Assembly (NCBI RefSeq): GCF_048403405.1
Contig: NZ_CP183129.1
Strand: one strand, 5' to 3'
Length of the DNA: 64,000 nt
From: Escherichia coli
GTDB lineage: Bacteria > Pseudomonadota > Gammaproteobacteria > Enterobacterales > Enterobacteriaceae
A model generated the notes under the pieces. The model made no database searches. It was given only the letters and a program-made list of their open reading frames with translations, and had not been told where the DNA came from. How positions within the stretch are numbered: the first letter of the stretch is position 1; each line of letters starts with the position of its first letter. Both the position numbers and the translations under genes were made by a program. Below, piece after piece: positions 7,465-30,806 of this stretch.

Positions 7465-8358
7465 ATGACGAATTTAAAAGCAGTTATACCGGTAGCAGGT
7501 CTTGGGATGCATATGTTGCCTGCCACTAAGGCGATTCCCAAAGAGATGCTACCGATCGTCGACAAGCCAATGATTCAGTACATTGTTGACGAGATTGTGG
7601 CTGCAGGGATCAAAGAAATCCTCCTGGTAACTCACGCGTCCAAGAACGCAGTCGAAAACCACTTCGACACCTCTTATGAATTAGAATCTCTCCTTGAACA
7701 GCGCGTGAAGCGTCAACTGCTGGCGGAAGTACAGTCTATCTGTCCGCCGGGCGTGACCATTATGAACGTGCGTCAGGGCGAACCTTTAGGTTTAGGCCAC
7801 TCCATTTTGTGTGCACGACCCGCCATTGGTGACAACCCATTTGTCGTGGTATTGCCGGACGTTGTGATCGACGACGCCAGTGCCGACCCGCTGCGCTACA
7901 ACCTTGCTGCCATGATTGCACGTTTCAACGAAACGGGCCGCAGCCAGGTGCTGGCAAAACGTATGCCGGGTGACCTCTCTGAATACTCCGTCATTCAGAC
8001 TAAAGAGCCGCTGGATCGTGAAGGTAAAGTCAGCCGTATTGTTGAATTCATAGAAAAGCCGGATCAGCCGCAGACGCTGGACTCAGACATCATGGCCGTT
8101 GGTCGATATGTGCTTTCTGCCGATATTTGGCCGGAACTTGAACGCACTCAGCCTGGTGCATGGGGGCGTATTCAGCTGACTGATGCCATTGCCGAACTGG
8201 CGAAAAAACAGTCCGTTGATGCCATGCTGATGACTGGTGACAGCTATGACTGCGGTAAAAAAATGGGTTATATGCAGGCGTTTGTGAAGTATGGACTGCG
8301 CAACCTCAAAGAAGGGGCGAAGTTCCGCAAAGGCATTGAGAAACTGTTAAGCGAATAA
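7465..8358 (+). CDS. galF: UTP-glucose-1-phosphate uridylyltransferase subunit GalF
   Basis: 297 aa; recalled GalF sequence ([34 protein letters not shown]); 5' flank of O-antigen cluster. Confidence 0.9.
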
Positions 8359-8618: not shown

Positions 8619-8657
8619 CAGTGCACTGGTAGCTGTTAAGCCAGGGGCGGTAGCGTG
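8619..8657 (+). promoter_or_regulatory. JUMPstart element with ops site (GGCGGTAGC), RfaH-dependent antitermination signal
   Basis: Sequence cagtgcactggtagctgttaagccaggggcggtagcgtg between galF and first O-antigen gene; ops core GGCGGTAGC visible. Confidence 0.6.
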
Positions 8658-27218: not shown

Positions 27219-28118
27219 TCACTCCATCATCTTCTCAATCGGCAGGACCAGGATTGAACTGGCACCCAGCGCTTTCAGTTTTTCCATGGTTTCCCAGAAC
27301 AGGGTTTCGCTGCTGACCATGTGCATCGCTACGCGCTGTTGATCACCCGCCAGCGGCAGAATAGTTGGGCGTTCGGCACCTGGCAGCAGGGCGATGACTT
27401 CATCCAGACGTTCGGTCGGTGCGTGCATCATGATGTATTTTGATTCGCGCGCCTGGATCACACCCTGAATACGGGTCAGCAGTTTGTCGATCAGTTGCTG
27501 TTTGGATTCTTCCATTTCGCCATCGCGTTGGATCAGGCAAGCTTTCGAGCGGTAGATAACTTCGACTTCGCGCAGGCCGTTTGCTTCCAGCGTGGCACCG
27601 GTGGAAACCAGATCGCAAATCGCATCCGCCAGTCCGGCACGCGGGGCGACTTCAACAGAACCGTTCAGTAAGCAGGATTTAAAAGAGATGCCTTTCTGGT
27701 CGAGATAACGCTTGAGCAGGTGAGGATAAGAGGTGGCGATACGTTTACCGTTTAAGGAGAGCGGGCCGTCCCAGGCTTCATCAACCGGCGTTGCCAGTGA
27801 AAGTCGGCAGCCGCCAAAATCCAGACGACGCAGGGTAAAGTAGCGCGGATCTTCACCCTGGGCGCGGCGGTTAAGCAGCTCTTCTTCCAGCACGTTTTCG
27901 CCGATAATCCCAAGGTCTACCACGCCATCCATTACCAGACCGGGAATGTCGTCGTCACGCACGCGCAGAATATCAATCGGCATGTTTTCTGCCATCGCGA
28001 TCAGGCGCTGGGTGTGAAGATTGATTTTAATGCCACAGCGCGCCAGCAATTCGCGTGAATCATCACTTAAACGGCCGGATTTCTGCATAGCTATGCGTAA
28101 ACGAGTGTTGTCTGTCAT
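27219..28118 (-). CDS. hisG: ATP phosphoribosyltransferase
   Basis: 299 aa from [17 protein letters not shown]; first structural gene of his operon. Confidence 0.95.
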
Positions 28119-28165
28119 TTTGTTATTCCTCTTTAAACCTGTCTGAACCGTTATCAACCGCGCAA

Positions 28166-28210
28166 TAAAAAAGCCCCCGGAAGGTGATCTTCCGGGGGCT
28201 TTCTCATGCG
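28166..28210 (-). terminator. his attenuator terminator hairpin
   Basis: Minus-strand hairpin agcccccggaagatcaccttccgggggc followed by T-run, between hisL and hisG. Confidence 0.65.
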
Positions 28211-28263
28211 TTCATGCACCACTGGAAGATCTGAATGTCTTCCAGCACACATCGCCTGAAAGA

Positions 28264-28314
28264 CTAGTCAGGATGATGGTGATGATGGTGGTGTTTAAAT
28301 TGAACGCGTGTCAT
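28264..28314 (-). CDS. hisL: his operon leader peptide (MTRVQFKHHHHHHHPD)
   Basis: 16-codon ORF with seven consecutive His codons upstream of attenuator hairpin. Confidence 0.85.
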   Translation of the reverse strand: MTRVQFKHHHHHHHPD

Positions 28315-28535
28315 AAAAGTCTCTGTGAATGTTTATTCAACTGATGTCTTTTAACCTAAACCACTTTCACGTTAGAAAGCAAGGGCTTTTTTATATATTT
28401 TATGGCAATGGATTTGTTTAATGAATGAGCGGGGAAAGGAGGGGGCCTGGAGTGACTACGTTAGAAAAGAAATCGTGAAAATATGTCTTTAAAACCCTCA
28501 AGAACATTGTGTTCTGTAACTAAAGTGGGCTTTGT

Positions 28536-28640
28536 TCCTGCCGGATGCGGCGTGAATGCCTTATCTGGTCTACAAATGTTGCGTAAATTCAATATATTGA
28601 TGTTTTTGTAGGACTGATAAGCGGAGCGCATCAGGCAATG
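28536..28640. repeat. REP/BIME-type palindromic elements
   Basis: gcctgccggatgcggcgtgaatgccttatctggtctaca and gtaggactgataagcggagcgcatcaggca in hisL-yeeZ intergenic region. Confidence 0.5.
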
Positions 28641-28740
28641 GTATATTTGCTAACCGTTTCGATTTCATTCATAGAATGAATTGTCAGTTTTGATACGCTA
28701 GCGTAGCCTTATAGATCTTAGGTGTATCAGGAGATAACGG

Positions 28741-30465: not shown

Positions 30466-30806
30466 CGGGATGAAATTTTAGCAAATAGTGCGATCGCCGG
30501 TGTTTATGCAAAATCTGATGACGGAAAATCAGCCATTTAAAGAAAAATTATTATGACAAGCCTCTCATTCTCTTGTCATTTCCCCCCCATTTAGGCACAA
30601 TGCGCCGCTGTCAAAAAATGACTAAAAACCGACGTTTCATCAGCGTCGGTTATTTTTTGCTTCAAACCAATCATTCATACCAAGAGGCCGGGCTTCGTAC
30701 CGGATAGATATTTACTAAAAATCGACAGTTGTTGTCGCTGAGGAATCCAAAAAAATGGGGCAATTTTTTGCTTACGCGACGGTTATCACCGTAAAGGAGA
30801 ATGACC

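Follow-up and report, generated by a model that had tools for sequence, protein, structure and literature searches.

Base-for-base identity with K-12 of the hisL leader and attenuator in an Escherichia coli his operon

The leader of the histidine operon has been a textbook case of ribosome-mediated attenuation, together with hairpin-stabilised pausing, since about 1980, and the leader of Salmonella enterica reportedly served as the experimental model in the work of Johnston, Barnes, Chumley, Bossi and Roth of that year. The his operon is not known to have a repressor, so that attenuation and the ppGpp control of the promoter constitute its main control. The Salmonella enterica leader is the system used in PMC4046918, where its read-through was found to increase when His-tRNA is limiting. 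In this leader, which encodes the same peptide as that of E. coli, stop codons or stalls at His4-His6 gave the highest expression and the strongest de-attenuation, and hisG mRNA stayed low when translation was blocked, an effect relieved by deletion of the E:F hairpin (PMC4046918). For the hisL pause, the consensus G-10 Y-1 G+1 and the dependence on a hairpin have been described (PMC9291695), and Yao et al. (2023, mLife) have proposed that attenuation needs DnaA as well as the ribosome (PMC10989985).

The locus considered here lies in a stretch of E. coli DNA of 64,000 nucleotides, which was analysed as a whole (the window), and comprises the following features of the leader and of the first gene behind it.

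28314..28264, minus strand: hisL leader-peptide ORF of 16 codons, MTRVQFKHHHHHHHPD by translation, the TAG stop included
28293..28273, minus strand: seven consecutive His codons, regulatory (CAC CAC CAT CAT CAC CAT CAT)
28266-28264, minus strand: TAG stop of hisL
28288-28165, minus strand: match to the Rfam family RF00514 (His_leader), 131.6 bits against a gathering score of 49, E = 1.4e-21
28118..27219, minus strand: hisG, ATP phosphoribosyltransferase, 299 aa, the first regulated structural gene

The feature is almost certainly the hisL leader with the attenuator of the E. coli hisLGDCBHAFI operon, governed by ribosome-mediated transcription attenuation, and no result obtained here speaks against this assignment. 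The original prediction had placed a his leader with seven consecutive His codons at 28166-28314, and this span proved accurate from the start codon to the terminator end, 28314 being the A of the hisL ATG and 28166 the base just past the attenuator U6 tract; exactly seven His codons are read on translation of 28314..28264, and the assignment to a his leader is borne out by the RF00514 match and the identity with K-12. The strand had not been given in that prediction, and the hisL feature is on the minus strand. In the whole-window Rfam scan, the covariance model of RF00514 was covered over its full length (positions 1-126 of 126), and every property of RF00514 membership that was tested was found in the leader apart from compensatory change, the both-side changes being few among such close relatives. 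No other His run longer than three residues occurs in the six-frame translation of the 64-kb window besides that of hisL, the chance expectation for runs of at least seven, calculated from the six-frame His frequency of the window, is about 4e-6, and in 200 windows simulated by a first-order Markov model the longest His run never exceeded five.

The orientation of the his operon, which the leader had been said to confirm, is indeed fixed by it as the minus strand, with hisG at 28118..27219 and, downstream of it on the same strand, hisD, C, B, H, A, F and IE. The gap between the U-tract of the attenuator and hisG amounts to 45 nt. In the list of open reading frames hisG appears as a 312-aa ORF started by TTG, within which an internal ATG gives the 299-aa protein, and its accession WP_000131782.1 is identical in the collinear record NZ_OX030728.1 and in K-12. 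The accession of the hisL protein, WP_001364200.1, is also the same in the annotations of NZ_OX030728.1, strain 720632 and K-12 JM109. Over its full 64 kb, the window and E. coli isolate 68 (NZ_OX030728.1) are collinear, with 99.98% identity; strain 720632, the best intergenic match, was also considered as the collinear genome and was set aside, since it shares the local arrangement only and NZ_OX030728.1 is the truly collinear one.

The alignment with K-12 hisL, proposed in the original prediction as a check, was performed, and positions 28120-28420 (301 nt), a block which includes the promoter, the leader and the attenuator, are 100% identical to K-12 JM109, in which the locus is annotated as 'hisL: his operon leader peptide' and 'His leader region'. 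In the pairwise alignment the identity with K-12 is perfect from about 28444 through the promoter, the leader and the attenuator to the start of hisG. The same block matches 5423 of the 5426 complete E. coli genomes, where it is annotated as hisL, and in 3987 of these 5423 genomes the identity over the block is at least 99%. The leader is the K-12 sequence base for base and therefore says nothing new on the mechanism, as the original prediction had anticipated in calling it not novel; the hisL leader element is already known.

The attenuator is composed of six segments, which may pair in two alternative chains, and of the U-tract that closes the terminator.

28281..28268, minus strand: segment A, with His codons 5-7 and the Pro and Asp codons; partner of B
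28264..28246, minus strand: segment B, partner of A in the terminating chain or of C in the antiterminating chain
28245..28237, minus strand: segment C, partner of D or of B
28231..28219, minus strand: segment D, partner of C, or of E in the antiterminator
28202..28186, minus strand: segment E, the 5' arm of the terminator or the 3' arm of the antiterminator
28183..28170, minus strand: segment F, the 3' arm of the terminator hairpin
28172..28164, minus strand: attenuator U-tract UUUUUUAUU; the AAA of segment E is additionally paired with its first three U

The calculated duplex energies are -12.6 for A:B, -11.8 for B:C, -11.9 for C:D, -13.1 for D:E and -28.1 kcal/mol for E:F, the last being the most stable helix against the range from -11.8 to -13.1 kcal/mol of the others. 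The stem of E:F, an inverted repeat rich in G+C, is formed by AAAGCCCCCGGAAG and CUUCCGGGGGCUUU in 14 bp with a 5-nt loop (AUCAC) and is followed by UUUUUUAUU, which agrees with the attenuator hairpin that had been named from the sequence; in the D:E antiterminator, GAUCUUCC and GGAAGAUC are perfectly complementary. The 186-nt leader folds with -70.4 kcal/mol against -41.1 +/- 4.1 for dinucleotide shuffles (z = -7.1), none of the 200 shuffles being as stable, and its minimum-energy structure is the terminated form A:B, C:D, E:F, which is also encoded by the Rfam model. The attenuator hairpin was missed by the simple terminator pattern scan of the window, where the tail rule demands at least five T in eight bases, probably because the stem was extended into the U-run and the leftover tail then failed the T rule.

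The full-length equilibrium folds kept the terminator under every ribosome mask. Such an outcome is to be expected, since no other helix approaches E:F in stability and the choice made in attenuation is a kinetic one; as no switch was seen in them, the full-length folds were replaced by folds of the nascent RNA, ended one base short of F, with the ribosome footprint (assumed to extend from -15 to +13 nt of the A-site) imposed. Without a ribosome, the nascent fold contains A:B and C:D, and E is single-stranded; with the ribosome at the stop codon, C:D is formed and E is free, A:B being largely masked; and with the A-site on His codons 3-7, the fold consists of B:C and D:E, by which the 5' arm of the terminator is sequestered, the antiterminated folds being most stable at His5 and His6 (-33.4 kcal/mol). 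The switch is thus seen only when the co-transcriptional order is imposed, and this dependence on order is what the kinetic mechanism would predict, an argument which itself depends on the model. Within that model, the two pairing chains are thermodynamically feasible and mutually exclusive, and the classical switch is reproduced in silico; the nascent-fold results agree with the Salmonella leader experiments described above.

The leader also carries the pause signal.

28244, minus strand: predicted his pause position, at which the paused RNA would end in U (-1); both +1 and -10 are G

At the level of sequence the known his pause signal is intact: a 5-bp hairpin, CCUGA/UCAGG, stops 11 nt short of this 3' end, and the bases agree with the G-10 Y-1 G+1 consensus and the hairpin dependence of the hisL pause (PMC9291695). 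If transcription starts at 28345, the pause base falls at nt 102, the position of the known his pause.

The mechanism that may be proposed for the locus is the classical one. Transcription would start about 31 nt upstream of the hisL ATG, and once the A:B pause hairpin had been made, RNA polymerase would pause at nt 102, allowing the ribosome to load and to catch up. With charged tRNA-His plentiful, the ribosome would pass the seven His codons and reach the stop codon, where C:D could pair and E would stay free, so that E:F with its U-tract would form a strong intrinsic terminator and transcription would end about 45 nt before hisG; an untranslated leader would be expected to give the same termination outcome by way of A:B and C:D. 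With His-tRNA scarce, the ribosome would stall on the His codons and cover A, upon which B:C and D:E would pair, E would be barred from F, and the polymerase would enter hisG. For the E. coli leader considered here, the response to histidine, the pausing and the coupling would be those of the literature, carried over by the identity of sequence.

The elements of the promoter precede the leader within the block that is 100% identical to K-12.

28382..28377, minus strand: putative -35 hexamer TTGCTT of the his promoter
28358..28353, minus strand: putative -10 hexamer TAGGTT, with an 18-nt spacer and an A/T-rich discriminator after it
28345, minus strand: predicted transcription start +1 (A), about 31 nt upstream of the hisL ATG

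TTGCTT and TAGGTT probably correspond to the -35 and -10 hexamers known from the his promoter of Salmonella and E. coli. The consensus promoter and terminator scan of the window missed the his promoter, probably through the rules of the scan, since the -10 hexamer TAGGTT matches at 3 of the 6 positions only, and the failure of the scan to detect both the promoter and the attenuator is probably a limitation of the tool and not evidence against the feature.

For the start, 28345 was chosen because it places the pause at nt 102 and the sites resembling DnaA boxes at the exact transcript positions of PMC10989985. The only published alternative layer of control is this DnaA-dependent riboswitch, according to which DnaA binds boxes in the HisL RNA and favours A:B, C:D and E:F atop the classical mechanism, and we consider its operation here unlikely. 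With +1 at 28345, the four published boxes (PMC10989985) stand at 46-54, 48-56, 126-134 and 187-195, exactly where they were reported in the transcript, and in the same work dnaA affected the transcription of hisG but not of hisL, and HisL RNA was immunoprecipitated with DnaA in vivo. However, no binding of DnaA to the RNA was obtained in vitro, and the model was termed 'possible' by its authors (PMC10989985). Every one of the boxes has two mismatches to TTWTNCACA, and matches of this kind number 1276 in the window (about 1 per 50 bp) against 1166 in the shuffles, and 7 in the 196-bp leader against 3.9 expected; matches of equal quality being so common in the window, the boxes give no specific support at the level of sequence. 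Such a layer would, moreover, add to ribosome-mediated attenuation and not replace it, and the classical ribosome-mediated reading of the leader is kept in what follows.

Upstream of the his promoter the window departs from K-12, where the toxin-antitoxin pair yefM-yoeB is located between yeeZ and hisL; this pair is absent from the window.

28445-28740: intergenic stretch between yeeZ and the his promoter, in which about 210 bp with two inverted REP-like units replace yefM-yoeB
28540-28575 and 28607-28640: the REP-like units, an inverted pair

From about 28444 on, some 60 bp 5' of the his -35, the sequence is again that of K-12. The REP arrangement without yefM-yoeB is common to 1192 of the 5426 complete E. 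coli genomes (about 22%), and most of the other complete genomes give a two-piece match with yefM-yoeB annotated between the pieces. That the REP/BIME swap, about 60-260 bp upstream of the -35, alters the activity of the his promoter or its transcriptional insulation from yeeZ in this lineage, or that, separately, the DnaA-RNA layer is real, appears improbable to us; if true, the effect of the swap or the DnaA-RNA layer would mean extra regulation on an otherwise textbook attenuator. At the distal end of the his operon, where the 3' end of hisIE faces wzzB across a gap, a further REP-like sequence, GCCGGATGCGGCA, occupies 21044-21056 on the plus strand.

The distribution of the leader was followed with the pattern (CAY)x7-CCN-GAY over 100,044 species genomes, which gave at least 120 loci; the search pattern of (CAY)x7 and CCNGAY confined the sample to close relatives. 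About 70 among the matches listed are short ORFs ending in VQ(F/C)K-H7-PD and a stop codon in genera of Enterobacteriaceae, the leader-bearing genera being Escherichia, Salmonella, Citrobacter, Enterobacter, Kluyvera, Leclercia, Kosakonia, Atlantibacter, Mangrovibacter, Trabulsiella, Raoultella and others. About 50 among the matches listed were rejected as his leaders, being His runs within long ORFs or in unrelated organisms. Two Bacteroidia MAGs (L044 and L061) have short 'MHKHHHHHHHPD...' ORFs that resembled possible distant his leaders; the one in L044 was discarded, as hisG is absent nearby, and its setting is a repeat-rich sequence adjoining a 1257-aa surface-protein gene on the opposite strand.

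Two variants of the coding part were encountered among the Enterobacteriaceae. The strain TbOT1.10 of Trabulsiella odontotermitis (L120:1183-1354) has a hisL with ten consecutive His codons, MSVQFKHHHHHHHHHHPD, which arises by a 9-nt duplication of CACCATCAT and leaves the rest of the leader unchanged; the other T. odontotermitis strain (L114) has the usual seven. An in-frame ATG is located 27 nt upstream in nine his leaders of Enterobacter/Lelliottia (L020, L031, L041, L058, L075, L083, L084, L094, L104), where it would give a putative 25-aa peptide MNKHSSRIYMTRVQFKH7PD.

From the matches listed, 53 distinct Enterobacteriaceae leaders were aligned with the window. Their stems are essentially invariant, and the variation is found in the loops, in the D-E linker and in the sequence after F. 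On average, non-majority residues make up a fraction of 0.033 in the columns paired in either conformation versus 0.217 in those unpaired in both. The paired cells amount to 92.8% for the terminated and 97.6% for the antiterminated structure, and to 37-54% when the partners are slid by 1-3 columns. Changes on both sides of a pair were looked for in the 53 leaders, and one was found in the terminated and none in the antiterminated structure, which does not exceed the shuffle controls; since the stems are invariant, covariation is uninformative at this phylogenetic depth and brings no independent support. Only one substitution is common in the stems, a change of A to G in segment C that 16 of the 53 sequences carry; by it A-U becomes G-U in C:D and U-A becomes U-G in B:C, and the pairing is kept in both conformations.

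This near-invariance across the genera of Enterobacteriaceae exceeds the need of a single hairpin, which is the observation that might suggest the terminated transcript of about 180 nt to be a trans-acting small RNA, or the 16-aa peptide to have a function of its own. We hold this very improbable: no result obtained here points to a role in trans, the invariance is already accounted for by the three overlapping constraints of coding, two alternative pairing chains and the pause signal, and the His codons of Salmonella can be replaced and the leader still reports the speed of translation, which implies that the identity of the peptide is not what matters (PMC4046918). A His run alone is not diagnostic, because the 27-nt pattern of (CAY)x7 and CCNGAY is also found within long ORFs of unrelated organisms (Frankia, Streptomyces, SAR202), but the notion that the run and the hairpin are coincidental, or that a His-rich gene fragment stands beside an ordinary terminator with no regulatory link, has a negligible probability. 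Statistics, context and Rfam score exclude it: chance would give about 4e-6 such runs, the run belongs to an ORF of 16 codons that has a stop of its own and immediately precedes hisG, the full overlapping alternative pairings and the RF00514 match at 131.6 bits speak against coincidence, and the identity with the K-12 locus, which has been characterised by experiment, is 100%. The reading as a hisL leader with its ribosome-mediated attenuator is thus the one retained.

As an anchor for annotation, hisL gives the orientation and the start of the his operon and confirms the window as E. coli chromosome of the cps / O-antigen / gnd / his region. Several other elements of the window were recorded. 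A JUMPstart (ops-containing) element, RF01707, was matched with 62.4 bits at 8619-8657 on the plus strand, where the O-antigen cluster begins shortly after galF, a placement as expected for RfaH-dependent operons. An IS1 is located at about 15450-16660 within the O-antigen cluster between galF (7465-8358) and gnd (17043-18449), and it adjoins an 'oligosaccharide flippase' gene, which is a truncated pseudogene in the annotation of NZ_OX030728.1; if the flippase is truly inactive, the export of the O-antigen could be impaired. An enterobacterial sRNA STnc240 (RF02074) was matched at 30586-30660 on the plus strand with 68.2 bits against a gathering score of 55 and with a terminator-like 3' hairpin, and this match, between yeeY and yoeI/plaP on the same strand, may represent an sRNA or a 5' leader lying ahead of yoeI-plaP. 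In the part from about 38500 to 64000, tmaR is succeeded by a CP4-44-like island, in which yeeW, cbeA with a frameshifted gene for the toxin cbtA, yeeT, yeeS, a DUF932 gene and an antirestriction gene were noted. The next block, at about 43.6-51.2 kb, encodes a patatin-like phospholipase, an RdcB-family protein, a 798-aa dynamin-family protein and a GTPase, and past this dynamin/GTPase/patatin block are located an IS150, an ISL3 pseudogene, and inovirus Gp2-family and zinc-ribbon genes.

Among the known attenuators, trpL, pheL, leuL, thrL and ilvL share with hisL the logic of a short ORF rich in cognate codons, as well as the pause hairpin and the mutually exclusive antiterminator and terminator (PMC1183508, PMC9291695). 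The his leader differs from trpL by seven His against two Trp regulatory codons, and by its chain of six segments (A-F) against the four-segment scheme (1-4) of trp. The Salmonella enterica leader is far closer, with the same 16-aa peptide, seven His codons, A-F architecture and alternative pairings; it differs by few substitutions, mostly in loops and linkers such as the E:F loop, and by U8 in place of the U6AUU of E. coli. The leaders of S. enterica subsp. arizonae and diarizonae have 94-95% identity to the window over 163 nt, and that of subsp. arizonae carries the A to G change of segment C with the pairing preserved in both conformations. With E. coli K-12 the comparison is the simplest, since the promoter, the 5' UTR, the ORF, the segments A-F, the U-tract and the start of hisG are all identical, there is no difference within the leader element, and the only local divergence is in the region upstream of the promoter.
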